64,000 nt of DNA from Candidatus Bathyarchaeia archaeon (GCA_049512075.1 JBEKXL010000010.1:1-64000); one strand, 5' to 3'. Positions 792 to 59,185 are shown, counted from the stretch's first letter. Notes: generated from the letters alone by a model not told the origin. Program-made: numbers and translations.

Positions 792-856
792 CTGTATACA
801 AAAGCATCAACTAAATACACGAAAAAAGAGGGAATTGTGCGGGAGACATCCTCCAT
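792..856 (-). repeat. dispersed bipartite site, copy A (complete)
   Basis: Reverse complement GATGTCTCCCGCACAATTCCCTCTTTTTTCGTGTATTTAGTTGATGCTTTTGTATACAG aligns with 59128-59185; halves recur at 34742, 53044 and 53308. Confidence 0.85.
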
Positions 857-925
857 TCCTTAATAGCAAGGTTTAAGGGTTAATGCGTTGTTTAGGTTTC
901 GAATGTTTTCGGGAAGGTCTGAAGT

Positions 926-1477
926 TTGAGCAAGCAACAAGTCACTTTGGAAGAACGGAAAGCTGAGACCCTGATCAAACTCAGGGGTTACAAGCTGATT
1001 AAGAAACAAAAACATGAAGATGCGATAGGCTACATTGTTAATATGCCGAAGGAGAAAGAGAAAGCCTTGATATGGTGCGTCCCAGGCGAGACGACCGTGG
1101 GCATAAACAGCGTAAACCGTGTCACAAAGGCAATGAAGGACGCTGAAGTGGAAAGAGGAATAATCGTCACGGATGGAAGATACACGCATGCGGTCAAGCT
1201 TGGTGCAAAGAAGAAAAAAATAGAGCTATTGCCAAAAACCTTCCCGGCCTTCGACCTGTTCGAACACAAGCTTGTTCCAAAACATGAAATCCTGACGGAC
1301 GAAGAGAAGGAACAGTTGCTCGTACAGTACAAGGTTCACGCTTATCAACTGCCACAAATAAGCTCCTTAGACCCATGCGTCAAAGCAATAGGCGCCAAGC
1401 CGGGCGATATACTGCGCGTAATCAGGAAAAGCCCGACGGCCGGCGAATACATATCCTTCAGGTACGTAGTCGAATAA
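926..1477 (+). CDS. rpoH: RNA polymerase subunit Rpo5/RpoH with N-terminal extension
   Basis: C-terminal HKLVPKHEIL...QLPQI...DP...GAKPGDILRVIRKSPTAG...FRYV; about 105 aa extra N-terminal domain. Confidence 0.93.
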   Translation: MSKQQVTLEERKAETLIKLRGYKLIKKQKHEDAIGYIVNMPKEKEKALIWCVPGETTVGINSVNRVTKAMKDAEVERGIIVTDGRYTHAVKLGAKKKKIELLPKTFPAFDLFEHKLVPKHEILTDEEKEQLLVQYKVHAYQLPQISSLDPCVKAIGAKPGDILRVIRKSPTAGEYISFRYVVE

Positions 1478-1540
1478 CTTGTCTGCCGGTCTCAAGTAAT
1501 ACCTTAATTAGTCAGCTGTTCATTACTTGCTTTTCTTCGT

Positions 1541-2515
1541 TTGGTGCGAAAAGTGGCGCCGATAATTCGAATTCAGAATCTCACCAAAAAGTTCGGAAAC
1601 GTGGCCGCAGTAGATCATTTAAACTTAGACATCGAAGATGGCGAGATTATCGGTCTTTTGGGACCAAACGGCGCCGGCAAGAGCACTACTATTCTGATGC
1701 TCGCCACCGTCATCAAACCCACAGAGGGCACGGCCTGCGTAGGCGACTATGACATAAGGAAACAACCCGAAAAAGTGCGTGGAATGCTAGGCATAGCTTT
1801 CCAAGAACCCAAGATGCTGTTCGTGAGCACGCCCTGGGACGTTGTCAACTGGCACGCCAAAGTCTGCGGTTTGCCCACGGGCGAGCGAAAGCGAAGAGTG
1901 AAGGAAGTACTGAATACAGTGGACATGTGGGACGCACGCAAGAAGAACGTTCACGCGCTCTCAGGCGGAATGCGCAAGAGGGTAGAGATGGCGAAGGTTC
2001 TCATACAGAGACCAAAAATAGCCATCGTTGACGAACCCACAGCCCAGATCGACATCGTCGGCAAGCACAAGATTTGGAACATGCTCTACGAGCTCCGAGA
2101 CGAGGGAAGCACCATCATTCTGGCGACAAACGAGCTGTATGAGGCTGACAGGCTTTCGGACCGAGTTGGAATAATGCACAAAGGCAAACTGCTCGTGTGC
2201 GACACGCCTAAAAAGCTTAAGGACAGCATCGTAGGAGGAGACATCGTTGACGTGCAACTCGAGAAGGCTCCGCCAGTGGGAGTCGTTGAAGAGTTGAAGG
2301 GTCTCAAAGAAGTCGTGGACGTTCTGCAGCTCAAGCCCTTAAGCCTCCGCCTTTACCTGAACCGGGTGGAAGAAGTTGTCCCAAGAATAATGAGCCTTTT
2401 CGTTAAGCACAACGCGCCCATCCTTTCCTTCCGCATGAGTGAACCCAGCCTCGACGACGTGTTCGCCCACTACACCGGTTTGACCATTGAAGAAGCGCAG
2501 AAAGACAAGGAGTGA
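1541..2515 (+). CDS. ABC transporter ATP-binding protein (DrrA-like)
   Basis: GPNGAGKST, LSGGM, IVDEPT; C-terminal EPSLDDVF. Confidence 0.93.
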   Translation: MVRKVAPIIRIQNLTKKFGNVAAVDHLNLDIEDGEIIGLLGPNGAGKSTTILMLATVIKPTEGTACVGDYDIRKQPEKVRGMLGIAFQEPKMLFVSTPWDVVNWHAKVCGLPTGERKRRVKEVLNTVDMWDARKKNVHALSGGMRKRVEMAKVLIQRPKIAIVDEPTAQIDIVGKHKIWNMLYELRDEGSTIILATNELYEADRLSDRVGIMHKGKLLVCDTPKKLKDSIVGGDIVDVQLEKAPPVGVVEELKGLKEVVDVLQLKPLSLRLYLNRVEEVVPRIMSLFVKHNAPILSFRMSEPSLDDVFAHYTGLTIEEAQKDKE

Positions 2516-3582
2516 CACCGTCAACGAACAAGCTTTTCCTAGTAATCGAAAGAGATGTCCGCCTGTTTTTCCAGTACAGGTTCATGATTATCATGCGAGC
2601 CATTTGGTTCGTTTCGCAAATAGTCTTGTTCGGGCTAATCGCTTCACGTATGATCAACATACCAACGCACACGTTGACGACTGGGACTACGTACTTGCAA
2701 CCTAATCAGACGTATGTGTTCGATATCAATGTAACCCGCGATCTGAATTCCATACTTGTCAACGCTTCATCTGCGCAAGGGCATGGTGATGTTCACGTGT
2801 ATTTTCCGAATGGCACCTTGGCTGGTGGTGGGCACTTCGATCCCACAGCTGGCAACTACAGCTTGCAATTCGGGTTCAACACCCCTGACGTTGGTTTGTG
2901 GTCTGTGAAGATCGTATCCGCTGATGCAGCAGATAACTATTCGCTGACAGCTTACTCGCTTCTCGATTACTTTCGATACTACGTAGCTGGCTTGTCCATA
3001 ATGACGCTTTACTCAGCTGCCATATTCATCGGGTTTGACCTTTATGAAGAAGCTGAACATGGAGTTTTTGAATATCTGCTCAGCCTTCCCGTGTCAAGGC
3101 GGCAACTGGTTCTAGGTCGATCGATTGGCGGAGGGTTGAGAGCCTTCATCTACGTTGGACCCTTGATAGCCGTGTCGTTGTACGTCATCGGGTCGCTGAA
3201 CCCCGTTGCCTTTTTGATCTCTCTTTTCGCGCTCTTCCTGTTCGCCTTTGGAATTTCGGGAATGAGCATCACACTGGCGGTCATCATAAAATCCAGTGAC
3301 CGTTTTGACATCTTGATGGGCGTCTTGGACGCGTTGATCGTTCGCCTGAGCACGGCGATGTACCCGTTGGCAGTCCTGCAAGCTTCAAGTCCGTTGTACG
3401 CTGGGCTAGCCACTTTGAACCCTCTTACATACGTTACAGATCTTTTCCGATGGGGAACAGCCGTCACACCTTTGGACAACCCGCTGTTGCCGGTGCTTGT
3501 TGTGGTCGCGTTCTTCGGATTCTTCACTTTTGTGGGCGTAACTATCTATGATAAGCGGATCGAGGGCGGAGGTTGGCAATGA
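2512..3582 (+). CDS. ABC-2 type permease with inserted extracellular domain
   Basis: Multiple TM segments, LSLPVSR, NPLTY; overlaps ATPase stop. Confidence 0.88.
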   Translation: MTPSTNKLFLVIERDVRLFFQYRFMIIMRAIWFVSQIVLFGLIASRMINIPTHTLTTGTTYLQPNQTYVFDINVTRDLNSILVNASSAQGHGDVHVYFPNGTLAGGGHFDPTAGNYSLQFGFNTPDVGLWSVKIVSADAADNYSLTAYSLLDYFRYYVAGLSIMTLYSAAIFIGFDLYEEAEHGVFEYLLSLPVSRRQLVLGRSIGGGLRAFIYVGPLIAVSLYVIGSLNPVAFLISLFALFLFAFGISGMSITLAVIIKSSDRFDILMGVLDALIVRLSTAMYPLAVLQASSPLYAGLATLNPLTYVTDLFRWGTAVTPLDNPLLPVLVVVAFFGFFTFVGVTIYDKRIEGGGWQ

Positions 3583-3583
3583 T

Positions 3584-4360: not shown

Positions 4361-4453
4361 CGCGTTTTGAAACCTCAAAACATTGACCAACACGGCGGGA
4401 AACATTAACTATATCTCGCACGCACATAGATTCTATGATGGCCGCATCTTCCG

Positions 4454-6160: not shown

Positions 6161-6162
6161 GC

Positions 6163-7449
6163 ATGGTTAAACAAGAAGCGACCCTTAACTTTCTACGGCG
6201 GAGTGAGCGAGATCGGCGGCAACAAAATTCTGCTCAGAGACGGAGACACGAGAGTTTTCTTTGAGTTCAGCATGTCCTTCAGCATGAAAAGACAGTTCTA
6301 CTCACCGCCCTTTCTCTCACCCAAGAGCGAGAAAAGCTTGCAAGAGCTTGAGATTTTACCAAAGCCTGACGGCATCTACAAGTTGGACAGCAGGCCGCCG
6401 GAAGTCGACGCTGTATTCGTTTCTCACCGCCACTTGGACCACTCAACCTACTTGTCCTTCATAAATCGTCAAATCCCTATCTACTGCAGCGAAACAACAC
6501 AAACCATTCTGCAAGCTCTGGGCGAAACGTGCAGAACCGACTTGGAGTTTTGCGTCAAGGACATCCCCTTCAAATCATTGAGAACGGGAGGAAAGCTGAA
6601 AGTTGGCAGCCTAGATGTCCAGCCAGTTCATGTAGACCATTCTGTGCCAGGCGCATATGGCTTCGTAATCAACGCATCCCGAGGCACGGTGGTGTACACG
6701 GGAGACTTTCGAATCCACGGCGCCAAACCGGAGATGACCCGTGATTTTGTGGACAGGGTGTGAGAAGCAGAACCCGTAGCGGTGATCACTGAAGCCACGG
6801 ACATGACCGGTGCGTCGATTTCCTCTGAAAAAGAAGTTGAAGAAAAATTGAACTGTATCGTCAGCGAGGCAGAAGATATTGTGCTTGCCGAGTTTGCTTA
6901 GCCGATGTTGACCGGTTGAACAGTTTCTTTCGAATCGCCAAGAAGAATGGGCGGTGCCCAGCTGTCTCACTCAGACAAGCCTGCCTGTTGGAAGCACTGC
7001 GAACTGATAGGGGTTCAAGTGTCCTGAACTTGAATGATAAGAATGTTCTGATCTTTCGAAAGTCGAAGGAAAGACGCGATAAATGGGAAAGCCAAGTCTT
7101 AGAACAATACGCGGGCAAGGTCATCGACGTGTTCGAAGCTCCGAAGCAACAGTGCAGGGTAGTGTTAGGCTTGTCTCCCTACGATTTCGAAGAGCTCGTC
7201 GAAATCCAGCCGCAAGCAGGCAGCTGCTACGTTCTATCTGCGTCGGAACCCTTCAACGAGGAAATGGAGATTGACTTCAAAAGGCTCGCCAACTGGCTGG
7301 ATCATTACGGCCTGCCTCAGTACCACGTACACGTTTCAGGGCACATAATCCCTTTGCAGCTCAAGTCTCTTCTAAAGGAAATGGACGCGGCGAAAGTCTT
7401 CCCTATACACACAGAAAATGCTGAATTGTTCGGCAGGTTCATGCGAGAC
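6163..7449 (+). pseudogene. MBL-fold metallo-hydrolase / RNase J-like (beta-CASP) pseudogene
   Basis: EIGGN, SHRHLDH, VDHS, YTGDF, HVSGH, PIH motifs; frameshift near start, TGA at 6761, stop/frameshift near 6900, insertion at 7449; displaced 3' end at 12453-12503. Confidence 0.88.
7434..7449 (+). repeat. attL core, 16 bp
   Basis: CAGGTTCATGCGAGAC, identical to 12437-12452. Confidence 0.95.
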
Positions 7450-8404
7450 TACCCAAGAAATCGAGGAACCTACCGCAAACACACAGACAACACCACAAGA
7501 ACAAGCAATACTTAACGCACTAATCCCAATGGAACAAGAAATACCCGACAAACGACAATTCCAAAACCAAAAATACCGCCTCCTAAGGCTTGCCAAAAAC
7601 GCAAACATCCTAGACCAAAAAGCAGTCACTACATACATAACAACACTAAAAAGAAAAGACCAAACAACAGCATCAAAAGGATACCAAAAATGCCTATTCA
7701 CAACCTACTCACGATTTTGCAGACTCAACCAAATACCATTCTACCGACCAAGAATGAAATGCACGTACCCAATACCGCTAATACCAACAACCGCCAACAT
7801 CGAAAAAATAATAAACGCCTCAACCCGAAGAGGAGCAACAATCTTCAAAATAATGGCAGAAACCGCCGTAGAAGGAATGGAACTACACAAAACACACCGA
7901 AACCAAATAGATGCAGAAAACGGAATAATCAGCATCAAAGGATGCAAAGGACACACAAACGGACTATACAAACTAAAAACAACAACAGCCGAAATGCTCA
8001 GACAATACCTAGCCAAACACCAAGACCCCTACCCATTCCCAGACCCAAGAGCCATGAGCGAATGTTGGCAATACTACCGACGAAGAGCATCAAGAAAACT
8101 ATGCGAACCCGAACTGATGAAAATAACTCTAAAAAGCCTAAGAAACTACGCAGGAGCAATATTCTACTACGGAAAAGGAAACAAAGACCCAATCGCAACC
8201 CAACGCTTCATGCGACACACACGACTAGACACAACACAACACTACCTACAAGCAATCATTATACCCGAAGATGAAGAATACACAACAAAAACCGTACAAC
8301 TCGGAACACCAACAACACTAAAAGAAATCACCGAGTTATCCGACAACGGATACCAAAAATTCACAGAAGCCGACGGATACCAAATATTCAGAAAACGGAA
8401 ATGA
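7434..8404 (+). CDS. tyrosine recombinase/integrase, C-terminal part of att-partitioned gene
   Basis: KG-K, SLRNY, MRHxxxxTTQHY, tail GYQKFTEADGYQIFRKRK; native N-terminus lies at 12376-12452. Confidence 0.9.
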
Positions 8405-8413
8405 GGAACAAAA

Positions 8414-8599
8414 ATGAACAAACCAAAAACCGACTATACACTCGTGGAAATCAACGGAACAAACTACCCAATCGGAATCCGAATACTAGAACCCAACGAA
8501 GAAATACCACCAATCCAAAGACCCCGCAACACCACCAAAGCCATACTAATAAAAGCAGGCTTCAAACACGTCACAGAAACAGGCAAAAAACGCAAATAA
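8414..8599 (+). CDS. small protein resembling the integrase C-terminal tail
   Basis: LIKAGFKHVTETGKKRK; GAGG precedes ATG. Confidence 0.5.
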   Translation: MNKPKTDYTLVEINGTNYPIGIRILEPNEEIPPIQRPRNTTKAILIKAGFKHVTETGKKRK

Positions 8600-8652
8600 A
8601 AAGTTAAGCGCACACGCTAACAACAAACAAAAACGGGCCACATGCCATCAGG

Positions 8653-8709
8653 CACACAGATTAGACACCAAATGTATCAGGCCACACAGATTAGACACCA
8701 AATGTATCA
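8653..8709. repeat. tandem direct repeat, 27 bp x2 (30-bp period)
   Basis: CACACAGATTAGACACCAAATGTATCA at 8653 and 8683. Confidence 0.9.
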
Positions 8710-9128
8710 AAACGCCTAAAATTACGAAACTACATATATCAGGCGTAACAACAGATACAACGAATCAAAATCAACACGACCAGACACAACGTATCAAAAT
8801 CACACACCATGACGACAACGCCCTAAAAAATCGGGACAAACAACAACACTACACCGAACTACACCGTTAAGCAAAGCCAAAAACCCGAATCAAGGTAAAC
8901 CAAAACAACCCTCTCAAGCAGTAACCAAAACACCTAACCATGCTCAAAAATATCAAATGAAACAACAAATAACAATAACAATAACAATTACACCAACGCA
9001 TCAGGACAAACAACCCACTTGAGAACACAGAAACTGTCATCCACCTTAATAACACCAGAAACTGGAATCCACTTAACGCTAAAAACCAAGACCAACAGGC
9101 CAAACAACAACAACAAAAACCAAATCCC

Positions 9129-9231
9129 TTGGAGCGCAACAAAAAAACACCCAAAGGCATTGGAGCGCAACAAAAAAGCGCAAAAGCCATTGGAGCGCAA
9201 CACAGAAACCCAAAGGGATTGGAGCGCAACA
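9129..9231. repeat. iteron-like array, TTGGAGCGCAACA x4
   Basis: Copies at 9129, 9160, 9190, 9219 (period 31/30/29). Confidence 0.88.
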
Positions 9232-9765
9232 CAGAAACGCCCACTGCAGAAAAACCGCACTCAGGCTCCCTGAAGGGAGCCAAGGCATCATGGGCGCGCA
9301 AAGTACGCTCCACGAAAAACAAACAAAACGATGCAATCCAAGAATGGCAAACGTTCCAGCACAGCTCCAAACACAAAAACCAAATAATTGAAAACACAAC
9401 AGACAGACACTAAAACTTGAACACACAACACAAACAGCCAAAAATACCAAGACCAAAGGCCAACCACAACAAACAAACGAATCCAACGATTCAAAACAAC
9501 GTCAACAGACAACACGACAAAGCCAACACCAAAACTAAAACAAACGAATCTAACAATTCAAACAACAAAGGCACCTTCTAACGAAGAACACCAACAACAG
9601 ACAAAATAACAACACCACACACAGTTCTATTTAATCAAGCTGATTCATTATGTCGCGCTCAGCTCCGCCTCGCGCTCCAACACAAACAAAAACAGACAAA
9701 CACACAAAAACAATGATGAACCTAATCATGCTAACAAACAACAAAAAAGGAAAGAAGGAAACTAT

Positions 9766-10068
9766 TCACAACTCAACACGGAAAAGTTGGACCCAAACAC
9801 CAGACACCGCCAACTTACCATACCAAAAACCCTCACTCACCCGAAAACCGACATACCTAGGAACCTCCTCACAAAACCTCTCACAAACATCATCATCCGA
9901 CTCATAAGCCTCACCAAACACAGTAAAACCCACAGCACCACTCCGAACACACTCCCAACCAATACGTTGACAAACCTCACCATCAAAACAACACGGAGCA
10001 CAAACAGGAACCTCCTCACCAAACCGATTAACACGAGTAACTACATTATCATTCTTCAGAACAATCAC
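9766..10068 (-). CDS. hypothetical Cys-rich protein
   Basis: Overlaps stop of the upstream ORF; followed by T-tract terminator. Confidence 0.55.
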   Translation of the reverse strand: MIVLKNDNVVTRVNRFGEEVPVCAPCCFDGEVCQRIGWECVRSGAVGFTVFGEAYESDDDVCERFCEEVPRYVGFRVSEGFWYGKLAVSGVWVQLFRVEL

Positions 10069-10265
10069 CTCCGCAACCTCCCATCTAAAACAATCTTACT
10101 AATCTCAGAAACAACACGCGCACAACCACCACGACAAAACCGACTACCATCAAAACTCCAACCCAAATGCAAAAGATAATCCGCCTCAGAAACAAACACA
10201 CCACCACAAACCCGACAACAACAAAAACCAGAATTACCCTTCACAGAAAACCCTCCAGCAACCAC
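10065..10265 (-). CDS. small C2H2-like zinc finger protein
   Basis: CRVCGGVFVSEADYLLH. Confidence 0.6.
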   Translation of the reverse strand: MVAGGFSVKGNSGFCCCRVCGGVFVSEADYLLHLGWSFDGSRFCRGGCARVVSEISKIVLDGRLRR

Positions 10266-10305
10266 AATAAAAAAAGGGAAAATAGTGTTCCATCAGCATC
10301 ACCAT

Positions 10306-11442
10306 CTAACCTATCTTCCTACCGAAACGGTCACGCGAAACAGGAACCCAATTCTCCACGCCTCCACCATCTACCAAATCGTCGTAAAAAGAACCATTAA
10401 CACCACACTTAATCCGAGCCAACACATCAACATCAGAGCCAACATAACGAAACTCCTCAAGCGGACGCTGGCACAATGGGCAAAGCTCCTTAACCATCTT
10501 CGGCGTAACATGCAAACCACGATACGACGCAACGCCCCACCAAGTCAACAAACGAGCACCCTTAACCCCAACAGGAACACTCGCATGAGCCAACTCGTAA
10601 CTTATTGTCTTACGAATACTCCGACGAACCTCAGCCCGACCTGAAACACGGTCACGAGCAACCTTGATAATCCAACCCGTCTTACCATACTGCTCACGAA
10701 CCTTAGCCTCGAACCCATGGCAGCCCGAACAGGCCGAAACACTAGCAAAATCAACTTTAGGACAGTTTCGACAATTATAACCACCACGAATCCAACCAAG
10801 ATTATGCACATGCGGGCCATAATACCAACCCCGACCCCTAGTGTAACGGAAAGCGTGAACAACATCACAACCACCCAAAAAACCAACACCCTTCAAAACC
10901 TCACGAGACAAAAGCTTCAACTCACTACCATCAGTAACATGATAAAGCTTCATAGGAACAGAAGTGATAACATGTTCGACAAGCCCAAAATGCTTCGAAC
11001 CCTCATTTAGCCTTTCCTCAGCCCTCACACTCTCACGAAAAGCAACGCGACGGTAACACTCAGGACATGAATAACGGTCACACGAGTGCCGCCCATTCTT
11101 CATATACACCTTACCCTCAGCATGAACAATTTTACCCTCAGCATCAAAATGGTCATGATGGTCTTTAACATTCAAACAACCTTTAAAAACACCAAATTGA
11201 CCACAATTATCCTTCGTAACAGAACCCTTACCGACTAACGTCAGACCTTTATAGTAAACCCACATCGCAGCCGACTCAACATCAGCCGAAGCATGTTCAA
11301 TCTCATTCTCCTCATAAACTCGAATAGCCTCGGAATCGTCCACCATGTCCCTAACGGCTTCACCGTCAACAAAACGACCAAACTCATCCAAAAACAACAC
11401 CCTCCGTAATACGCCTACAACACTCGGTAAACCACACCCCAA
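10306..11442 (-). CDS. HUH-superfamily rolling-circle replication initiator (start uncertain)
   Basis: Zn motif HSCDRYSCPEC, motif I HVITS, motif II PHVHNLG, motif III YELAH, C-terminal CPLC. Confidence 0.8.
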   Translation of the reverse strand: MGCGLPSVVGVLRRVLFLDEFGRFVDGEAVRDMVDDSEAIRVYEENEIEHASADVESAAMWVYYKGLTLVGKGSVTKDNCGQFGVFKGCLNVKDHHDHFDAEGKIVHAEGKVYMKNGRHSCDRYSCPECYRRVAFRESVRAEERLNEGSKHFGLVEHVITSVPMKLYHVTDGSELKLLSREVLKGVGFLGGCDVVHAFRYTRGRGWYYGPHVHNLGWIRGGYNCRNCPKVDFASVSACSGCHGFEAKVREQYGKTGWIIKVARDRVSGRAEVRRSIRKTISYELAHASVPVGVKGARLLTWWGVASYRGLHVTPKMVKELCPLCQRPLEEFRYVGSDVDVLARIKCGVNGSFYDDLVDGGGVENWVPVSRDRFGRKIG

Positions 11443-12085
11443 CCAAACCCGAACATCGCAGACGTACTACGGAAAAAAACATCGTGGAAACAAAACATTT
11501 TGAAAACAGGCTACTCAACAGTAACCACCTTCCTCGGAGTAAAACGCAAACCGCCCCTACGAAGTGGACAAGCCACAACTTTACCATTAGGCTCAACATG
11601 CGTACAAGAACCCGACTCAGAAACACACCAACGCCTAAAGTCAAAACGACACGGTCTAGTCAAATAAACCACTCCCAACTAGAAAACCTAAATGGAACAA
11701 TTTTCTAGGGAATATATTTGTCTTCATACCACTTACCTCTTGGCACAACGCCCACCCGCGCCAGCAAAAGAAGAACAACTAAGAACCTAACCAGAACAAA
11801 ACCACAAAAAACCACCAAAACCAACAATTCAACTTAAACCGCACAGAGAACTCAAACCCCAAGCAGCACCACACAGCAGACCAAACAGAGTCTCAAAATC
11901 ACTCAATCAAACATAAACATCACAACAGTTCTTCCTCTGCTTTGCGCTCAGGCGAACCTTGCGCAATATCTAACTAGCAAAACAACTATAAAAATCCATC
12001 CAAATATGAAAAGTCACGAAACGCACACAGAAACGCATGTCAGTCCTCGAAGACATAAGCCTTTCCCCTTCGCAAAAGCTTCAGG

Positions 12086-12452: not shown

Positions 12453-12558
12453 CTTAAAGGAAAAGTGGTCCTCGTCGAGAAAGGAAAAGAGTACAGAATC
12501 TAAAGCAATACTTTGGTCTATTCATCAGATTAGAAAATCAGAAGTGGACTTTGGGTTG

Positions 12559-16288: not shown

Positions 16289-17539
16289 TCACTTAGCCTT
16301 TCTGAAAAGCATACGGTTTGTGTTTGGGTTGTTGCAGATATACGTCCATCCTGATTCTATCAGCTTCCCAGCTTCTTCGTCAGTGGCGACGGAGGCGAAA
16401 TAGAACCTTTCGTCCTGTTGGGGTCTGAGTTGTTCCGTCCAATGCAGATATTTCTCCGTGTTCGAAAAGTGCTTATGGCCCAGGTTATGCTGAACTTCTA
16501 AGGCTGATATGCCGTTGAGAATGTCCGTCGTGGCCCTGACGTGCCTGAATGTGTGAAAGTGAATCTTGATGAAGCTGGGTCTTACGTTCTTGTCAGCCAC
16601 TCTCTTACGCTGGATATGGAACTCCTGACAGTACACGCCGTTCTTAGGGTTGAATACATACGTGTCATATTTGCGGGGAAGACTGTTCAGCAGGTCTATG
16701 AGGGTTCTTGAAACTCTGAGCCCGTACCTGGGAAGACTGCCCTTCTCGGGGTGAGTGATCGCAATCTTGCAGCTTTCAAAGTTGATGTCCGTCCATTCTA
16801 GCTTGTGAGCTTCTCCCCGGCGACATCCAGTTTCTAGCAGCGCACGACAGAATATTCCTAGCCTCTTGGAGAGTCCGGCGATGAACAGAAAGCAGTCTTG
16901 TTCTGTTGGGATGTAGGGCATTTTCGGCTCGTAGTTGACTTTGATAGGCTCCCACTGGATCCCGAAGAGTTTGCAGTATGATTTGTATGACTGGACGAGT
17001 AACCACTTCGTAGGTGTCGGATAATTCTTTACCGCTAGGACCGTTTCGACCGTTTCTGAGGTGTTCAGGTCTGCTCCGTCACGCATAAGTTGGGCTAGAT
17101 GCTGTATTCGAAGCTTAATGGTGCTTGGCTGTAAACCGCGTTTGAGACATTTCCATTCGAACTGTGCTAGTATTCCTTCCTTATCTCCCGCAACCTTCAC
17201 TATGGTTGCAGATGTCAAGTTTTTCGTTCCTGGCCAGGATACGCACACTTGACCGCCCCTCTCTCTATCTTTAATCGTTTTTATTTTTTTATGTCCAAAA
17301 CTGAACCTAAGACCGCAAGCACGGCACAGGTAACGCTGAGTCTGAGAACCATCACTAAGCTGTCGTAAACCATCTTTGTAAAGAAGACTTGAACCACATT
17401 GAGGACATTTTCGGGGTCTGGACGACTGTTGCGGCTCGTTTTGGCTTACGAACTCCCCAGTAGTTTCGCCGCTTATGAAGTTAGTTGCGTTGTGGGAGAC
17501 AGCCATTCCAAACCCCTCACTTGAAAAGTCAAGCCTCAC
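16289..17539 (-). CDS. tyrosine recombinase/integrase with N-terminal zinc ribbon
   Basis: CPQC...QRYLCRAC; ETGCRRGE, HTFRH, LGH, TEKY; tail GWTYICNNPNTNRMLFRKAK. Confidence 0.93.
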   Translation of the reverse strand: MRLDFSSEGFGMAVSHNATNFISGETTGEFVSQNEPQQSSRPRKCPQCGSSLLYKDGLRQLSDGSQTQRYLCRACGLRFSFGHKKIKTIKDRERGGQVCVSWPGTKNLTSATIVKVAGDKEGILAQFEWKCLKRGLQPSTIKLRIQHLAQLMRDGADLNTSETVETVLAVKNYPTPTKWLLVQSYKSYCKLFGIQWEPIKVNYEPKMPYIPTEQDCFLFIAGLSKRLGIFCRALLETGCRRGEAHKLEWTDINFESCKIAITHPEKGSLPRYGLRVSRTLIDLLNSLPRKYDTYVFNPKNGVYCQEFHIQRKRVADKNVRPSFIKIHFHTFRHVRATTDILNGISALEVQHNLGHKHFSNTEKYLHWTEQLRPQQDERFYFASVATDEEAGKLIESGWTYICNNPNTNRMLFRKAK

Positions 17540-25685: not shown

Positions 25686-26699
25686 TTAAAGACTCTTGAT
25701 TGGGCTTTGAAGATATGAAGGCGTCAAACACGGCTCGCAACGCTTCCAGACGCGACGCCACTCTTCAGGACCGATAGTCGTGTACGTGTTTTCCATCTTG
25801 GCCTTTCCTTTGGACCCATGCCCCATCAGCGCCTCGATGTCAGTTTCAGTTATTACACGTGCCATGTGAACAACTGAGCGAAACCCGTGTCTAAGGCTGT
25901 GAGGACTACAAGGGTTAGTCTTGCCTTGCCACTTACCCATGAACTCAATAGCCCTAGTCTTAAAATAGGAGTCAACGCTTTCGACGGACGTGTCGAACAA
26001 CCTGGAATCAGGATAAAGAGTCTTGCCTTTTAAGTATTCCAAGAGAGCGTCAATCGTCCACTTGCCGCAGAAGGTCACGAATCGAACCCCAGTCTTAGAA
26101 CGCCCAGCAAGTCGGAAGTCTAACAGAAGCGGAGACACCTTCCCCAGTTCCTTTTCAACATCTGCATAAGTCAAACTCAAACAATCCGAAACCGATAGAC
26201 CTGATTGAAACATCAGCCTTCCGAGAGCTTGATATGCGGGAAGCTTGAACAGAACCAAGAACCTTGCCACTTCGTCAGCGTCAGCCCATTCATGCGTGAG
26301 AACTTGCACATCGTCATTGGGCATACCAAGATAATCAAGCGTCAGAGAAACCTTGCGATACTTCGCATAACCCTGAATCGAAGCCAAATAGGTTCGCGTA
26401 CTTTTGGGAGCCTTACCCGACATCACAAGACAAGTCTTAAATGAGCGAAGAAGAGGCGCTGCATAATCAACCTTCTCAGCAAGTGGCCTACGGTCATCAT
26501 CATCCACCTTTTGTATGAAGCTGTCAACCGAACCCTCTCCCCGAGCGCATAGAAACTTAGCAAAGAAAGACAAGGCCGTTCTGTACGTCCGACTTGTGGA
26601 AGGCTTCACCAGGGTCAAGAACAACTCGGTCTTTTCTCCCAGTTCAGGAACTCCCTTAAACTCTAACGATAACGGTTCTGTTTGATTCTCCACTGTCAA
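25686..26699 (-). CDS. tyrosine recombinase/integrase
   Basis: STSRTY, QSGLSVSD, RSKT, HSLRHGF, LMGH, NTY. Confidence 0.9.
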   Translation of the reverse strand: MTVENQTEPLSLEFKGVPELGEKTELFLTLVKPSTSRTYRTALSFFAKFLCARGEGSVDSFIQKVDDDDRRPLAEKVDYAAPLLRSFKTCLVMSGKAPKSTRTYLASIQGYAKYRKVSLTLDYLGMPNDDVQVLTHEWADADEVARFLVLFKLPAYQALGRLMFQSGLSVSDCLSLTYADVEKELGKVSPLLLDFRLAGRSKTGVRFVTFCGKWTIDALLEYLKGKTLYPDSRLFDTSVESVDSYFKTRAIEFMGKWQGKTNPCSPHSLRHGFRSVVHMARVITETDIEALMGHGSKGKAKMENTYTTIGPEEWRRVWKRCEPCLTPSYLQSPIKSL

Positions 26700-34673: not shown

Positions 34674-34741
34674 TTTTAAACCCCTAGTTAATCTCCTATT
34701 GCTACACATATATGATTTCTGTTGAGTCGATGTTTGGAAGA

Positions 34742-34775
34742 GAAAAAAGGGGGATTGTGCGGGAGACATCTCCAT
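34742..34775 (-). repeat. dispersed site, copy C (GTCTCCC/T-tract half only)
   Basis: ATTGTGCGGGAGACATC identical at 834-850 and 34754-34770; flanks also match. Confidence 0.85.
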
Positions 34776-34870
34776 CTTTAGAATCTTTAACTCTAATCAA
34801 TAGGTCTTGTAGTGCGCTTGGATTCACAACGTATAAGTGAACGTAGCAACTCTTGATATTCACGATTTGA

Positions 34871-40851: not shown

Positions 40852-41148
40852 ATGATGAGACGTTCCAAACTTGAGATGTATATCGACATACTCAAAGTGT
40901 TAGCGCACCGTGGGCCATTGAAGCTTACTCACATCATGTATAAAGCTAACGTTAATTGCAGCGTCTTGAAAGAATACTTAGACTTTCTCATAAAGCAGAA
41001 CCTCGTCGAAGAAAGAATGGTAGGCAAGAGACGAGTCGTCTACGCTGTAACCCAAAGAGGCATAACAGTACTCAAGTACTTCAGAGAACTGAAACAAGTC
41101 CTGCCGATAGTTGAAGAGCTTAGAAACAGAGTCCCAGTACCGTACTAA
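40852..41148 (+). CDS. winged-helix transcriptional regulator
   Basis: RRSKLEMYIDIL...LTHIMYKANVN...YAVTQRG. Confidence 0.88.
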   Translation: MMRRSKLEMYIDILKVLAHRGPLKLTHIMYKANVNCSVLKEYLDFLIKQNLVEERMVGKRRVVYAVTQRGITVLKYFRELKQVLPIVEELRNRVPVPY

Positions 41149-41492: not shown

Positions 41493-41870
41493 TTGTCCAA
41501 TCAAGAAATTGTGGGCAAGAGGCCTTTGCAGGTTCTGGAGAAGATTCGCGAGAACTTGGAGAGGCTCAACGAGAAAATAGAAGTAATGATTGAATTGCAA
41601 AAACATGGGAGGAAAGATTTACAGCCGCCTCTTTCTGACGCCCCTTTGGATGTGATGACACTGCTCTCGCTGCCAGATCATTTGAGAAAGACTGCTATGA
41701 CGCTTTGCAGAATGGGCCGTGCCACGGCTAACGAGATTTCTGAACAGACAAAGAGAGCGAGGGCTGTAGAAAGCGCTTATCTGAATCAGCTGGTGATCAT
41801 GGGCTACGTAAAGAAGGAGAGGAACGGCAGGAAAGCTTACTTTTTCGTGGACCGGGACACTCAAGGGTGA
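41493..41870 (+). CDS. coiled-coil plus wHTH regulator
   Basis: ATANEISEQTKRARAVESAYLNQLVIMGYVKKER. Confidence 0.8.
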   Translation: MSNQEIVGKRPLQVLEKIRENLERLNEKIEVMIELQKHGRKDLQPPLSDAPLDVMTLLSLPDHLRKTAMTLCRMGRATANEISEQTKRARAVESAYLNQLVIMGYVKKERNGRKAYFFVDRDTQG

Positions 41871-42649: not shown

Positions 42650-42667
42650 TGTGGCCTACGTGTAGTC

Positions 42668-43576: not shown

Positions 43577-43577
43577 T

Positions 43578-48506: not shown

Positions 48507-48593
48507 TAGGCATCATTTTGCACGCGTTAGGTGGCTCAATACTAACGTCATTCTATTCTCGCGCGTTCCGTTCGAAGTATTCGTTGCGCCTCC

Positions 48594-49106: not shown

Positions 49107-49164
49107 TGATAGCTTTTCTCCCAGTCTAGAGGATTTGCAGCTTTGGTTTGTGTTTGCTGCCTCC

Positions 49165-51417: not shown

Positions 51418-53043
51418 CTACTGTGACCTTTCTCTATCAGAACACGTCGTGATGGAGAATTAAAGCGGTTATTTCGAAATCTGCAATATGAAGAAACTGA
51501 TAACATACCGCTAGCCAAATGCTGAAGTGCAGCGTATGACCAGTGTTTTGAACGAGTTTCCGATTTGACTGTTTTTCTGTTTGGCCAGCTTTTCCTGCCC
51601 TTTTCTCTGCAACTGCTGCGTTTCGAAGCTGTTACTGTTCGAAGGTTGACCTTTCGAAAAAGGCTCAGTTTTTCCTCATCTGGGACAAAATCGCAAAGCC
51701 TGAATCAGGCCCAAATTTCAAAAAGGAACCCTTTTCAACCCGTTCTGTCAAGCTTAGCGCGCGCTTAAACGAATCATGCTTAAAAGCTAGTTTCGACTGT
51801 AAGCTTGGTTCTGAATGGATAAATTGTCGATACTATCTCCACTTTGATCCTAGGAAAGTGAAATACAAACCTAGTAGGTAGTGAGAATCTTAATCGTGGT
51901 ACTCTAGCAGAAATAAGTAGACATTCTAAGAAGAAGGATGAAGATGGTTTACGCAAATATTTTGAAAACCACGAATATGTATAGTTTATAACTAGATCAT
52001 TAGATATTAGAGAGAAGGTTCTAGGCCCTTTCCAACTGTCTGATCAGGCATTGATTTTTGATAAAAGAATGCTCATTTCTCAAAGTTTTCAGCACTAACA
52101 GTTTAACTAGAATGTGCAGTTTTAGATCCTCTTAAAGCATGTATAAAACCAGTATCCTCAGAGTATTTTTCTGGTAGTCAAAAATGAATAGACTAGAATT
52201 ACTCTTCTTTAACAGAATAGAACTATTAGCTTAGAGAACTAGACAGTGTTTAGAGACTGGATACGTGGATGGCTAGGGCCTCATACAAATACTGTCGATA
52301 ATCTCCATGCGAAGCAAAGTGTTAACTGCCAATGTTAATTGTACTATGAACCATTATGTGCAGAATTCCACTGTTCCCAGGATCCAGTGAAAACTTGGCT
52401 GTTTAAACAGCCCATGCACTAGTATTACTAAAGGAACGTAGACTCTAGAACTTATAGAGAGAGAGTCGGAGTGACGTTAGTAGTGCAGCGTTACCGTTAC
52501 CGTTACTTTGGTACATTCATCATATTTACTTCAATGCTTCTATGGACTTTATACATGCTTTTTCGGTGACTATTCGTATCCATGGTAAACTTACTCTTTT
52601 TAACATAGTCAAAAGCGAAGTATTTACGTTTTTATGGAGACTAAGCCTTGAATGTCACCCATGCCATAAGAACCCAAGTTTACAGTCTAAAGCTACAATA
52701 GGACTCTATTCGAGTTTCTAGGCTTAATGTTGACCGTGGCCTTATAGAAAAACCGGCGAAAATCTCCATGCGAAAGCTCCGCCCTATACTTCGGGGTTAC
52801 TTCGAGCCTCTGACAGGCTTTCCTCCTAGGGAATTATCAGTAGTATCGATCCTGGTTATGCAGCTAACGCGTGTCCAGTGCCAAGGCGTTACTGGTTGGT
52901 CAGGGTTGAACAAATGAAGGTTGAGGCATGGTTTTTGTGTTCCTAGGCTACGGAGAAGGAGGCAAACTAGATTCTGGGTGTTCCAGGGATGTTGAGTTTC
53001 TCCTTGTTGAGAGTGTCTATGCACGGCAGCAGGCGCAGGGATA

Positions 53044-53328
53044 CTCGTTGATGCTTCTGTATACGATTCGGGAAGCTGGTTTTGAGGTCTCACCAAGATT
53101 TTGCGTTTGGTGCCATGGGGCTGAACATGCTTTTTTCTTGACGGTTTTCCATGAGTGCAGCAAGTTGCACTGTCTGCTATAGGCTATATGGCCAATGTTT
53201 TCGCTCGTCTCAGATGCAGATTTTACTGTTTGGTGACTGTGGTTGTATAGGTATTACTTGTAGTTTCAACATTTCACCAGCTTCTCCTCTAGAGAAGGAG
53301 CGAAGGGCTGTATACAAAAGCATCAACG
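53044..53328. repeat. inverted pair of the dispersed core (copies D and E)
   Basis: CTCGTTGATGCTTCTGTATACG at 53044-53065; CTGTATACAAAAGCATCAACG at 53308-53328. Confidence 0.88.
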
Positions 53329-53405
53329 AAAGTTCCCAGTTCTGAATTCTTCGACAGCCAGCGGAGCTGAAAAGTATTAAAGTGGTTTTGACCTAAGTCT
53401 GGCTT

Positions 53406-53954
53406 ATGAAAACTGCACAAGTTTTAAAAGAGTTTTCTGTCACGGGCGGACACAAAATTGTTCTGAGAACTCCCAGGTGGGAGGACCTGGATGATCTGCT
53501 GGAGCTTATCAACTCGGTCGTCGACGAAGGGGCCGAGATAAGCAGGGATGAGAAGGTTTCGAGAGAGGAGGAGATAGATTGGCTTTCGGGACTACTAGCT
53601 CGCTTAGAGAGAGGCAAGACCTTTTTCCTAGTTGCCGAGGTCAAAGGCAGAATCATCGCGTCTTCCGATATCAACCGGCAGATTGGATTTCAGAAGCATG
53701 TCGGCGTGGCTGGTATAGTCATTAAGAAGGGTTTCAGAGAGTTAGGCATCGGAACTGCGATGATGCGCGTCTTGATTGAGCAGGCAAAAAAGATGGGTAT
53801 GGAGATTTTGACTCTTACCGCCTTCGCAAATAACAAGCGAGCGATACACGTTTATGAGAAGGTTGGGTTCGTGCAGACTGGTCTGATTCCGAAGAAGCAT
53901 TTGAAGCAAGGCAAATACATAGATGAAGTGATAATGACCAAGCTGTTGGAGTGA
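53406..53954 (+). CDS. GNAT family N-acetyltransferase
   Basis: FRELGIGT, NKRAIHVYEKVGF. Confidence 0.9.
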   Translation: MKTAQVLKEFSVTGGHKIVLRTPRWEDLDDLLELINSVVDEGAEISRDEKVSREEEIDWLSGLLARLERGKTFFLVAEVKGRIIASSDINRQIGFQKHVGVAGIVIKKGFRELGIGTAMMRVLIEQAKKMGMEILTLTAFANNKRAIHVYEKVGFVQTGLIPKKHLKQGKYIDEVIMTKLLE

Positions 53955-53961
53955 AGCTGCC

Positions 53962-55902: not shown

Positions 55903-56299
55903 GCCTTGAAGTTTCAGCCATGTCTCGATGAAGATGGCCTCCTGGAAAGCACGCCCAAAAGATTAACGCCGCATTTTCGTTCATGCTTCACAGGGGCCAG
56001 AATGGTCAAATTTAAAACTTTAACCAAATTGAGTCGCATTTCGTAATTTAGATTTGCCTGTTTTTTGTAAATTCTGGAGGGTCCACGTTTCTTCGAGTGA
56101 AAAACTGTGAACAGGTTGATATTCCAAGGGTGTTTCAGTCAGCAGTCACGTTGAGGCCATTGTTAATTGCTCGAATAGTTCTGTGGTGGACAGGCTTAAA
56201 CGATGCCTGGACTCGTTAGGCAGGAGTCCAACAAGTTGCCGCTTCGCTGATCTCTTAAATACTTCGGCAAGCTTCGAAGCCTCATGATAGCGCAGACCT

Positions 56300-57367
56300 C
56301 TAGCTGAGGTTCGGCAGAGGTGTTTTCGTTCCTTGGCCTTTTCCCAGCAATAGTCCTATGCCTGCCCATTGAAAAACGAAGTAGGACACGACTAGTTTGA
56401 ACCATAGGGTTACGACCCTCGTTAGCAGAGTTGCGGAGACGCTGATGGCAGCTGGGATGCCGAGTAAGGCGTAAGAGCCGCTTACTATTATTTCCGTGAA
56501 GCCTAGGAAGGACACTCCTACGGCTTGCAGGCTTCCTGTCAGGGCGTACACAATGAGCACCTTGTCCACTGGCGCAGGGTATCCCAGCGAAGCAAAGGTT
56601 AAGAAGGTTATCGAAATGTCAAAACCCCACGCTAGAAGAGAGAGTGAAATCGGTCGGGCTAGGGCCTTAGGATTGGCACTTAGAGTCCGTATTCCTTCAT
56701 GAAACCTTTTCAGCAGTTGTTCTGCTCTCTCTCGGAAATCTTGGGGGTTCCAGCGATCTCTCAGTACAAAGCATCCGGCGCGAACAATCCAGCCAAGTAT
56801 CTTTCCTGTTGCCTTCTCGTTAGCGCTCAAGTATAGGATCATGAAGAGTGAAAAGACTGTTAAGAACAAGACGACAGTAACGAACAGGAGTACATTGCTT
56901 GAAGGAGTGTAGTTCAACGCCAAGAGAGCCAAACCAAAAATCAGGCTGCCGACTGTAACCGCTGTCACGATGATTTTTTGACTAACAACGGAAGCTACAA
57001 TTCTCCCCGGTTCCTGACCTGAAGACTTAGACAGCATGTAGGCCTTTGAAAGGTCTCCGCTCCAGCCTGGATCTGGAACGACGCTGTCAAAGAACATGCC
57101 TGCCCATGCGAACAGCAGGACTTCACGAATCTTGGTCTTTATGTCGAGGTTGCGTAGCAGACTTCGCCAAGCCAGCGTGTAGAACAACACGCTTGCCAAG
57201 AAGGCAACGAAGGCTGAGGTGTACCAGAAAAGGTTTGTATGTTTGATTACGTCCACAACGTTTACGGTGCCTATATAATAGTAGAGATAAAGAACAAGCA
57301 CGGCTAACCCGATGCCGACAAATAGAAGAATCCTTCTGGTAAGCCGGGGCTTCGGCGCTACGCTCAT
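56300..57367 (-). CDS. UPF0104/LPG-synthase TM (flippase-like) protein
   Basis: Multi-TM; W..LL, GMFFDSVVP...SGDLSKAY, TLLTRVVTLW. Confidence 0.85.
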   Translation of the reverse strand: MSVAPKPRLTRRILLFVGIGLAVLVLYLYYYIGTVNVVDVIKHTNLFWYTSAFVAFLASVLFYTLAWRSLLRNLDIKTKIREVLLFAWAGMFFDSVVPDPGWSGDLSKAYMLSKSSGQEPGRIVASVVSQKIIVTAVTVGSLIFGLALLALNYTPSSNVLLFVTVVLFLTVFSLFMILYLSANEKATGKILGWIVRAGCFVLRDRWNPQDFRERAEQLLKRFHEGIRTLSANPKALARPISLSLLAWGFDISITFLTFASLGYPAPVDKVLIVYALTGSLQAVGVSFLGFTEIIVSGSYALLGIPAAISVSATLLTRVVTLWFKLVVSYFVFQWAGIGLLLGKGQGTKTPLPNLS

Positions 57368-57685
57368 GCAGCCGTTTCCTCTGTGTTGGTGAAGGCCTGA
57401 GAACAGTTAAATGCTTATTGCTTTTCACCGTCAAAAACACGAGACTTGCTGTCTAGATGTGCCAAGTGGGCAGGTAAATGTGCAATCTTTCAACGTGCGT
57501 CAGAGGCTTTCTCTGAAGTCTCGTATTCTGTCCTCCAAACCCGATTTGCCCATTATGGGTTTATCAGAACCTTTTCGATATTCGTCCGCGATTTGAGATT
57601 CGACGCCGCTCTCCTTCTTCTCAATTGTTTTCAGGTGCGTGTGTCTTTTATATACTGAAATCATTGTTGTTATGTTTGTGTCCGT

Positions 57686-58141
57686 ATGAGCGAAGACGTC
57701 TTTGAGAAACCGTTAGTAATGAAGGATTTTTTGAAAGAAAGAAGGAAAGCAAAGGCCAAGAAACCGAGGAAACCCAGGCTGTATGAGAAGGTGAAGAGGG
57801 TACCAGAATCTAAGAGACAGAAGCGACATAGTAAGTATTCAGAACTGGTCAATGCGATAGCTAAAGAGAAGGAGGGGACCTACAAAGTGTTGTTGCATTC
57901 CATAAAAGAAGATCTAACACCCTGGGGTGCATACCCTTCAATTGAGAAGGTGTTGATTCAAATAGCCAAGCGTGATGGAGTGGACTTTAGCATGGCCGTC
58001 AGAAGGCAGGTTCAGACCAAGAGGGGGATGAGGACCTACGTTTCCTATCCCGAATACGTCAAGTGGAAAGAAGGTAATTTGAGGCTGAGAATAGTAAACG
58101 GGGAGCTCTTCATAGAGAAGAAGACGGACAGACCGCTCTGA
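57686..58141 (+). CDS. basic hypothetical protein
   Basis: 151-aa ORF; TTTATATA upstream. Confidence 0.65.
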   Translation: MSEDVFEKPLVMKDFLKERRKAKAKKPRKPRLYEKVKRVPESKRQKRHSKYSELVNAIAKEKEGTYKVLLHSIKEDLTPWGAYPSIEKVLIQIAKRDGVDFSMAVRRQVQTKRGMRTYVSYPEYVKWKEGNLRLRIVNGELFIEKKTDRPL

Positions 58142-58977
58142 GCATTTGGGTATTCGGGCACTGTGCTTATCTGAATCCTGTAGAAGTGCGAGAGATTCAT
58201 CCATGCCTCGTTTGAAGAGTCAGTTCCGTGAATGTAGATTGGATAAGTCCTGTTCGGATAATCGATGTCTTCTTTCACGTAGCCATACAAGCTGTAGAAA
58301 TCACTGTTTTCTGCCTCAAAACTATCTTTATTGCAGTAAAGATTCAGTAATGGGCCACCCCAGCTCGCAATCTCCCTGAATTCCAGATGCAGAAAATTGC
58401 TCATTTGGATTGCGTAGTGGTTTTTATCGGTGTCAAGGATTTTGATGTCGCTGAAAGATCAGTAGGATAAATGGTAGTCTTGATCCGCGTCATCGGTGAT
58501 ACCGTAGCCCGTGCGGTTTTGTGTGAACCAGATGCCCAAATCTCTTATCTGGACCCCGTTCCTTTGTCCTTGTATGGGTATTGCATCCATGCTGGGCCTG
58601 GTTACCTTCAGAACCGTACCTTTTAGGTAGACGGGTGGATCATCAGGAAGCCCCGAAGGAGTGTTAGCGGAGGCTCCTTCCAATATGACTCCGTCGCGAT
58701 CAATGGTTATCCAGCCTTCGTAGTCGCCCGGTTTCAGGTGGATTATGCCGCCTCCGCCGGGCATAGCATCTAAGGCCTCTTGGAAGAGTTGAGTGAAATT
58801 TGTGCCGGAAAAATCAATGGACCCTGTTGAACCATTTTGGGCATAATAGTAGGATCCTTCGACCCATACAGTGTAGCAACTGTTGACCACATTTGGACCG
58901 GAATTAGGGGGAATTTGGCCAACGCGCAAAGCTCCAACAACGTAGCCTATAGTGGCTGCTAGCAAGACCCCCAGCAC
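58142..58977 (-). pseudogene. degraded surface beta-helix-like protein
   Basis: YYAQNGSTG...FQEALDA...IHLKPGDY; in-frame TGA at 58459; 3' end apparently truncated. Confidence 0.6.
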
Positions 58978-59127
58978 AATAGAAGCGCGCGCGCTAAAAC
59001 TTCGTACTCGTTTGCCGAAAGGATAACTTGATATTCCTTAGGGAATCAAAATGAATGAGACTTACCAAAAAAAGCACACCAACCAATGAAAAGCGGCCGG
59101 GGTGAGGTACACTCGGCATAGTCGGGT

Positions 59128-59185
59128 GAAGTCTCCCACAAGCAATTCTCTTTTTTTGTGTGCCTCGTTGATGCTTTTGTATACG
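59128..59185 (+). repeat. dispersed bipartite site, copy B (complete), 60 bp upstream of integrase
   Basis: GAAGTCTCCCACAAGCAATTCTCTTTTTTTGTGTGCCTCGTTGATGCTTTTGTATACG. Confidence 0.85.

Follow-up and report, generated by a model that had tools for sequence, protein, structure and literature searches.

The first 64,000 nucleotides (nt) of contig C10 from a Candidatus Bathyarchaeia archaeon (GCA_049512075.1, JBEKXL010000010.1:1-64000; this whole stretch is called the window here) carry, dispersed between positions 792 and 59,185, copies of two short sequences, X and Y, which are joined in some places and stand alone in others. They raise the question of whether X and Y are halves of a single recombination site, as proposed in a preliminary description made from the window alone, or two separate elements. 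Our analysis suggests the latter: X would be an arm at the end of integrated DNA islands, Y a promoter box of the host, and the two would be fused in one family of integrative elements. We give this reading a probability of about 0.6.

The genome (G000; 2.73 Mb in 86 contigs, rated 99.8% complete) was compared with 40 relatives, making a panel of 41 genomes in which G001, G002, G003 and G004 belong to the same genus. Alternative joints in the source population were sought in the assembled contigs of four runs; contigs drop rare variants.

X and Y in the window and across genomes

The sites described at five places are all present and are not random. The Y 18-mer, GTTGATGCTTTTGTATAC, occurs in the window three times exactly and once with one mismatch (Table 1), four copies against 0.06 expected, a count reached in none of 100 shuffles. 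The exact 17-mer core of X is found at 834-850 and 34754-34770, both on the minus strand (two against 0.13 expected; at least two in 1/100 shuffles). The third X of the window, at 59124-59158, is diverged: it is missed at up to three mismatches and scores E 0.9 with the genome-wide X profile, and it is colinear with the copy at 794-856 in an inverted match of 37 nt (86%). The copies in the window are real but only a sample, since the genome adds Y at C10:67892 and C14:64655 and about 39 X-like copies. Likewise, the sequence first given for X holds, but its 5' limit was set too short, as AAGTGG belongs to X, whereas the description of Y as a dyad does not agree with the logo of 206 dereplicated instances, which is asymmetric.

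The X consensus spans about 36-40 nt and reads AAGTGGAGAT-N-TCTCCCGCRCAAtCCCC-T5-7. It is built of an imperfect dyad (GTGGAGAT and ATCTCCCGC), a C-tract and a run of five to seven T. A profile search of the genome detected 23 copies at E<0.01 and 39 at E<1, spread over many contigs, and pairs of X less than 3 kb apart were in direct orientation in 8/8 cases. Across the panel the X core was found in 14/41 genomes, all of one family, f1 (13/24 genomes of f1 and 0/16 of other families; control 0). A viral collection yielded six matches to the X core pattern, comprising two genuine X copies with a T-run and four coding look-alikes, and one IMG/VR contig ends 14 nt from an X. The same collection contained Y once, and neither a relative of int59246, the integrase-like gene of the window (Table 1), nor an X-Y composite.

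Y is far more widespread. Its logo shows an upstream extension of about 10 nt (A.TG.GTTTt), giving an 18-bp core and about 28 bp in all. At up to one mismatch, the genome holds six copies, five on C10 and one on C14; across the panel Y is present in 29/41 genomes from six families, with 2-14 copies per genome, and a reversed-pattern control returned 0 everywhere. Among public sequences (one genome per species), the exact 18-mer occurs in at least 139 stretches, nearly all labelled Bathyarchaeia or Bathyarchaeota; two are labelled as bacterial bins. Variants of Y are common to all copies of a genome (GTATCC in 4/4 copies of G040, GTCGATGC in 2/2 of G009, and 2/2 in G030), and this uniformity suggests a single trans-acting partner. 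In 23/215 instances Y is followed, 30-39 nt downstream, by a partner box, (C)TGGTGA(A), and TGGTGA within 140 nt of Y is downstream in 43 instances and upstream in 6. This box is often followed by GTAATAC (19 instances, 0 in the control). The exact 18-mer was not found in the searchable literature, and the passages on integrases and tRNA in PMC10848311 and PMC11697101 mention neither X nor Y.

X at the borders of inserted DNA

The position of X at junctions, its inward polarity and its link to tRNA fragments argue that it is a module of island ends, comparable to an attachment (att) arm; X is probably carried, as a conserved module, at the terminus of DNA islands acquired through site-specific integration. 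In 4/6 copies tested for synteny and in the tRNA-His element described below, 4-15 nt separate the outer edge of X from the stop of synteny or the end of an att repeat. Homology to all four same-genus genomes begins at 866-868 beside the copy at 821-856, and beside the copy at 34739-34777 it begins at 34781 (G002, G004), 34805 (G003) or 34807 (G001). At C4:99722 synteny ends 10 nt before X in 4/4 of these genomes; at C12:3140 homology begins 8 nt away in two of the four, and the distances in the remaining two are 71 and 132 nt. The check for synteny breaks suggested at the outset thus gave breaks 4-10 nt from the outer edge at window positions 856 and 34777 and at C4:99722. Every clear case points from host DNA into non-syntenic, inserted DNA; X reading from host into island had been noticed in the window and is seen at each of the junction copies, and tyrosine integrases lie within the islands.

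The first island of the window measures 27 kb (Table 1). Its left junction follows ...GCGAGAC within the 3' end of an MBL-fold gene, a point common to G004; an integrase-like gene begins at this left end, and X stands at the right end, which agrees with the earlier placement of an inward-reading X at 34742-34775 on this edge. The same site holds 3.7 kb in G002, 15.9 kb in G004 and about 0.27 kb in G003, none of it with X.

A second line of evidence comes from the host side of X. Using the tRNAs of this genome, tRNA-like DNA was detected directly outside 11/39 X copies, as compared with 71/3000 random windows (P 2.5e-9). These pieces are copies of intact tRNAs, over 31 nt for Asn, 28 for Leu, 22 for Arg, 23 for Glu and 15 for His, and are of two kinds: either the reverse complement of the 3' part, from the acceptor end/CCA through the T-arm to the variable loop, or the forward 5' part. 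By eye, 30 X copies of relatives showed the reverse-complement T-arm/acceptor in 8 and the forward 5' part in 3. The intact gene matching the 31-nt tRNA-Asn piece lies at the end of another contig.

Upstream of the RIO kinase, at C10:69450-69730, two such units (Arg 22 nt plus X, and Asn 31 nt plus X) lie in tandem, 170 nt apart, and on the same host flank G004 and another genome carry a His fragment with X and Y. The two tandem units and the His composite make this flank look like a probable integration hot spot.

In mechanistic terms, X would stand on the element side of a junction that bears a partial att repeat, often the duplicated 15-31-nt end of a tRNA gene, and may serve as the binding arm of the integrase or an accessory protein beside the crossover. 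The T-run could stop transcription that arrives from the flank or, in the circular form, from the att-proximal gene.

Y upstream of orthologous host genes

The neighbours of Y are of a different nature. In larger stretches from ten genomes, Y recurs in a gene cluster that comprises RIO kinase, a KH protein, an MBL-fold protein, a wHTH, an AspA-like HTH and a MinD/ParA-like ATPase, as well as MobA, an Mrr-like nuclease, FtsX/ABC, Hjc, (Lon), GNAT/UPF0047, Nnr and a macro domain; the additional copy at C10:67892 occupies the conserved KH/MBL-fold position. The gap from Y to the start codon is characteristic of each gene: 63-68 nt for MobA, 79-95 for the Mrr-like gene, 84-133 for Hjc, 69-106 for UPF0047/GNAT, 48-57 for Nnr and 61 for int59246. 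The orientation of Y is likewise fixed per gene, and all copies checked are intergenic. In 68 of 110 oriented Y loci a gene begins no more than 250 nt away, most often at 60-83 nt. We scanned a further 56 neighbour proteins from loci without window-gene or recurrent Y-neighbour families, and these include GDH (four loci, 60-76 nt), PolD, ribosomal proteins, PGK and CTP synthase; none of the 56 is a recombinase, integrase or transposase. Fixed promoter distances in stable syntenic loci, which the preliminary description had named as refuting a recombination site and indicating a transcription-factor site or sRNA, are what was found for Y.

The two Y boxes at 53 kb illustrate this arrangement. 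The inverted pair (53047/53327) is syntenic in many genera between LonB/Hjc, which reads away from it, and GNAT-UPF0047, and hence appears to comprise two divergent upstream regions in which each Y has the same sense relative to its own gene. The pair had been taken for a product of recombination; it instead corresponds to the Hjc/Lon and GNAT/UPF0047 upstream regions, kept over many genera. In two runs, a contig matches only the Y-to-Y unit (at least 90% alike), with unrelated flanks, and is cut exactly at the outer Y ends. We also considered a structured RNA and rejected it: Rfam gave no match in the window and none at E<=10 in 52900-53500, the consensus fold of the alignment contains only a helix of Y with its own inverted copy, and the z scores of single-sequence folds (-3.5 and -4.2) come solely from this terminal Y:Y helix.

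These data suggest that Y is a host cis-element, which stands at a fixed distance of about 50-130 nt and in fixed orientation before orthologous housekeeping genes throughout the Bathyarchaeia. Y most likely binds a regulator; more generally, it may be the site of one sequence-specific DNA-binding protein, for instance a regulator or a promoter-recruitment factor. Two candidates for this protein, the Sso10a-like wHTH at 40852-41148 and the HTH at 41493-41870, were rejected, as both are present in Y-less genomes and one Y-bearing genome has neither. The wHTH (98 amino acids) is itself unusually conserved, being 86-100% identical in 23/41 genomes where its neighbours are 59-93% identical, and it has several paralogues in the genome.

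The X-Y composite and the tRNA-His element

Where X and Y are joined, they form a composite of constant build. We identified ten X-Y composites in eight genomes; the layout of the copy at 794-856 is common to the other nine, and the T-run plus spacer between X and Y measures 15-16 nt in all six of the ten that were measured. A His-like 5' piece lies upstream in 6/10. In G045 the interval from Y to ATGTATGA and that from Y to the integrase start codon are conserved, after which the gene breaks off at a (GC)n tract. The His pieces, the spacing and the conservation in G045 argue that the composite combines the att arm and the integrase leader of an element family specific for tRNA-His.

An example occupies the end of the window and extends past it, from 59.1 to 66.5 kb. 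This element comprises, in order, a repeat of about 100 nt, X, Y, int59246, a second integrase (C10:65126-66442) and an intact tRNA-His, the last two lying beyond the window end. Its left repeat pairs with 66400-66509 (BLAST blocks 29/30 and 15/15), such that 59095-59109 equals C10:66495-66509, the first 15 nt of tRNA-His (C10:66496-66569). In G004 the tRNA-His has only 250 bp to the flanking gene and thus represents an empty site. The composite at 59128-59184 does stand just before an integrase, as described, with 61 nt to the integrase-like open reading frame (ORF); this gene scores E 6.5e-4 in the genome-wide integrase scan. The idea that the site moves among many non-tRNA loci is half true: the MBL-fold 3' end is such a locus, but X is strongly linked to tRNA fragments and the copy at 59.1 kb belongs to the tRNA-His element. 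An integrase split in the manner of SSV was dismissed, as the logic of an N-terminal fragment is absent and int59246 begins at a start of its own downstream of Y.

From its sequence, the X-Y fusion is best described as the predicted leader of the integrase gene in this tRNA-His element family, and the copy at 794-856 is a putative decayed end of an element of the same type, located at a synteny break. The placement of Y between X and the integrase gene would tie integrase control, or the att arm, to a host factor. A coding reading of X plus Y, suggested by a frame (DVSRTIPSFF..VDAFVY) in three copies, was discarded: the spacing varies between 15 and 16 nt among the six measured composites, which breaks the frame.

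Alternating GC tracts are a further feature of this genome. GCGCGCGC occurs 646 times in the whole genome against 28 expected, for example at window 741-752 and at L181:18480-18490, and such tracts are found repeatedly at junctions and deletion scars, for example directly behind the integrase start codon that G045 retains and in a tRNA-His fragment on C14.

Alternative explanations

Several observations weigh against X as an island arm and Y as a promoter box. Integrases are present in both islands of the window, but the enrichment of X near integrase genes, which had been proposed as a check, is not significant genome-wide (3/23 copies within 5 kb, P 0.25; 6/23 within 10 kb, P 0.06). The islands of G002 and G004 at the site of the 27-kb island are without X, and the 27-kb island has no clear direct repeat at its other end. 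At C3:9309 there is a synteny break with opposite or unclear polarity of X, and at C13:42878 there is no synteny on either side. The assembled contigs of the four runs, from which rare variants are dropped, contain no excision or circular junctions. As for Y, 42/110 loci have no gene start within 250 nt by crude ORF calls. An 18-mer that is 100% identical over hundreds of sites is stricter than usual operators, and the conserved neighbours that might encode the cognate binder, namely the wHTH and the AspA-like HTH with the MinD/ParA operon, do not follow Y. Finally, in 5/5 complete chromosomes (G041-G045) the distance of the main Y cluster from the best-scoring orc1/cdc6 amounts to 95.5-99.95% of the half-circle. 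A regional cluster opposite orc1 is not predicted by a pure regulon model, and together with oddities of gene order at Y it is the reason why we retain rivals that invoke chromosome organization or recombination.

The first of these holds that Y marks a chromosomal domain, terminus- or centromere-like in the manner of matS or parS, is bound by a structural protein, and has been copied by elements landing there. The copies are indeed regionally clustered (4/4 within 6 kb in G041, 3/4 within 8 kb in G044 and 3/4 within 10 kb in G045), the cluster contains the genes for the MinD/ParA-like ATPase and AspA-like HTH, and its position opposite orc1 and its near-perfect identity, like that of parS, fit such a role. 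We consider it unlikely, as Y also occurs far from the cluster at the GDH, PolD and ribosomal-protein loci, the checked copies are all intergenic with gene-specific spacing, and the ParA/HTH operon is found in Y-less genomes with no Y-like box nearby. Moreover, the five chromosomes are related, such that the antipodal position may be inherited, and an origin beside that orc1 is an assumption. A variant is about as doubtful: the Y boxes would be sites of a chromosome-level system opposite the replication origin, for terminus organization or recombination, which the elements hijacked through the Y of their att arm, and the promoter placement would be secondary; IMEX elements exploit dif in a similar way. 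The location of the cluster in five complete chromosomes deserves attention. G042 and G043 have further Y copies within 12-400 kb of the best-scoring orc1. Y as an ORB-type origin box, of which inverted copies flank an AT-rich region beside orc1/cdc6, was rejected, because orc1 is on other contigs in G000 and about 180 degrees from the Y cluster in the five complete genomes.

Alternatively, Y could be the site of a tyrosine recombinase, as in a shufflon or inverton or as an att core, with the segment between 53047 and 53327 invertible and the other copies permitting inversion or integration in the region. The pair is inverted with sharp borders, Y copies covary within a genome, Y lies 61 nt from an integrase-like gene, and G030, alone among the genomes, has an int59246 homolog beside the pair. 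Lon is found on either side of the pair (G000 and G045 versus G006), and in 1/12 genomes, G018, the interior is reversed relative to Lon; this case hangs on one flank gene, which has itself moved in G006. Asymmetric recombinase sites exist, for example R64 sfx. Nonetheless, distance and orientation are fixed at no fewer than eight different orthologous housekeeping genes, none of the 56 further neighbours is a recombinase, and integrase homologs lie near Y in only three of the loci examined. The contigs of the four runs also contain a single arrangement of the pair, a weak argument given that rare variants are dropped. We regard this explanation as improbable, to the same degree as the chromosomal-domain mark.

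For X, an RNA module is conceivable, either the 3' handle or terminator of small RNAs, or the complementary trailer or leader of tRNA genes split as they are in Nanoarchaeum. X carries a small hairpin and a terminal T-run, forward tRNA 5' halves precede it, and the reversed 3' parts mean that its reverse complement precedes a 3' half. Furthermore, although the genome is 99.8% complete, only 36 tRNAs pass the Rfam cut-off, and tRNAs for Asp, Lys and Phe are missing from the ARAGORN results; a passage in PMC11697101 gives the same number, 36 tRNA genes, for a complete Bathy-6 genome. At least one missing tRNA is an undetected intron-containing gene (near C28:19876), however, and the 3' pieces, which are duplicates of intact tRNAs, begin at the variable loop rather than at position 38. 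The two 5' halves have no partner with a matching acceptor strand, no conserved promoter was found at a fixed distance upstream of X, and X stands exactly at synteny breaks, which makes an RNA role very unlikely. Split tRNAs, or a mobile tRNA intron with X as terminal inverted repeat, were rejected, as neighbouring X copies are direct in 8/8 pairs and partner halves are lacking.

The least probable explanation, to which we attach little weight, is that X plus Y form one bipartite recombination site, with exchange at the X/Y boundary giving rise to the X-only and Y-only forms: all three forms exist and X lies at island edges, but Y-only copies are syntenic over many genera and families where X was not found, X-only copies are about tenfold commoner than composites and have partners of their own in the tRNA pieces, and the X-Y spacing is constant with no hybrid junction in the contigs. 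Of the proposal made from the window, what survives is a reusable element end, seen in the five junction copies of X. Y is no part of it, and X and Y as halves of one site are contradicted by the class-wide occurrence of Y alone, upstream at fixed positions in stable syntenic loci. Junctions at the X/Y boundary, which were to be looked for, were not seen, and the spacing of the composites is fixed at 15-16 nt in the six measured.

Features of the window

The coordinates of the features discussed above are collected in Table 1. Within the 27-kb island, the interval 7000-12000 is strongly skewed (GC skew -0.16 to -0.44, AT skew +0.34 to +0.60), the plus strand being rich in A and C; repeats of about 30 nt lie at 9108-9243, a perfect 27-nt tandem pair occupies 8653-8709, and the ORFs called in 8.9-11.4 kb match no Pfam family. 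At the contig start, 1-387 is 98% identical to C36:8748-9134 of the same genome, a repeat that probably caused an assembly break. The gene at 926-1477 fuses the C-terminal domain of Rpb5 to an N-terminal Mrr-like/inactive restriction-endonuclease domain.

Table 1. Positions of X, Y and associated features in the 64,000-nt window
Feature	Position	Strand	Remarks
Y box joined to the X at 821-856	794-811	-	exact 18-mer; T-run plus spacer between them 16 nt
X copy	821-856	-	profile E 1e-7; outer edge 856 towards the syntenic Rpb5 side; reading to the left into non-syntenic DNA
Inserted 27-kb island	7450-34780		from synteny limits and junction sequences
Integrase-like genes of the 27-kb island	7418-8404; 16289-17539; 25686-26699	+; -; -	Pfam
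X copy without Y	34739-34777	-	best profile match, E 2.9e-10; right edge of the 27-kb island
Y box, TTCT, one mismatch	53047-53064	+	Lon/Hjc side; same position in G001, G002, G003, G012, G045 and others
Stretch between the Y boxes, 245 bp	53065-53309		conserved blocks TCACCAAG, GTAGGCTA, GGTATTAC and TCACCAG (alignment of 14 genomes)
Y box	53310-53327	-	exact 18-mer; 78 nt upstream of the GNAT-UPF0047 operon; reverse-complement relative to the gene
Left att direct repeat of the tRNA-His element	59009-59109	+	similar to the 100 nt that end at position 15 of tRNA-His (contig joint)
Diverged X	59124-59158	+	15 nt inside the att repeat; reads into the tRNA-His element; E 0.9
Y box	59167-59184	+	exact 18-mer; 61 nt upstream of the integrase-like ORF
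int59246, tyrosine-recombinase catalytic domain, 209 amino acids	59246-59875	+	PF00589, E 1.2e-4, below the curated cut-off

Comparison with known systems

Integrative elements that target tRNA genes by means of tyrosine integrases are well known, including lambda- and P4-type islands and the pNOB8- and SSV-type elements of archaea. X resembles the ends of these elements in that it lies at the junction of island and host beside a duplicated piece of tRNA, with integrases inside the islands, and in that neighbouring copies are direct repeats, as serial integration would give. In contrast, one X arm serves many targets (the His, Glu, Asn, Leu and Arg tRNAs and the MBL-fold 3' end), X stands at one island end only, with no repeated arm-type sites, and it is known here from sequence alone. 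This suggests that one arm module is common to elements with many different targets. X would thereby provide a nucleotide-precise end marker for integrated islands in one family of Bathyarchaeia, and could be used to set the limits of mobile DNA in metagenome-assembled genomes in cases where integrases or tRNA repeats by themselves are not sufficient.

The occurrence of Y before an element integrase recalls the LexA boxes upstream of the integron gene intI and in CTX phage, and the SOS boxes of bacterial integrase promoters more generally. In both cases a box of chromosomal promoters lies upstream of an element integrase, here by about 60 nt; unlike those boxes, Y is asymmetric, and its role in integrase control is a proposal. 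As an unusually strict, class-wide 18-bp box shared by DNA-repair, proteolysis and central-metabolism genes and an element integrase, Y defines a candidate regulon and a bait for its binder, by which gene regulation in a barely cultivated but abundant class becomes testable.

The pair at 53 kb may further be compared with invertible promoters and the R64 shufflon, where short inverted repeats likewise flank a segment, here of 245 bp between divergent genes, and where sfx is asymmetric as well. Y differs in that most genomes have no adjacent recombinase, nearly all keep the pair in the same orientation, and Y also occurs singly at many other promoters. The tRNA pieces beside X are reminiscent of the split tRNAs of Nanoarchaeum equitans, whose halves are joined to a sequence whose reverse complement precedes the other halves. 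The pieces found here, however, duplicate intact genes, their 3' parts are not cut at 37/38 and they have no partners, and one common handle such as X would confer no specificity.

The archaeal dif site is described, in a passage of Cortez et al. 2010 (PMC2958812), as a single 28-bp site with two 11-bp inverted arms and a 6-bp spacer. Measured against that passage, Y is similar in being highly conserved and intergenic, with its main cluster opposite the presumed origin. We nevertheless rejected Y as an archaeal dif, for its logo is asymmetric, it has 2-14 copies per genome, and no 11-N-11 dyad is conserved between the paired boxes (none at 9/11 or better in 12/14 genomes). Overall, the kinds of element to which these sequences belong, an att arm and a regulatory box, are known, and X and Y are new versions of them.

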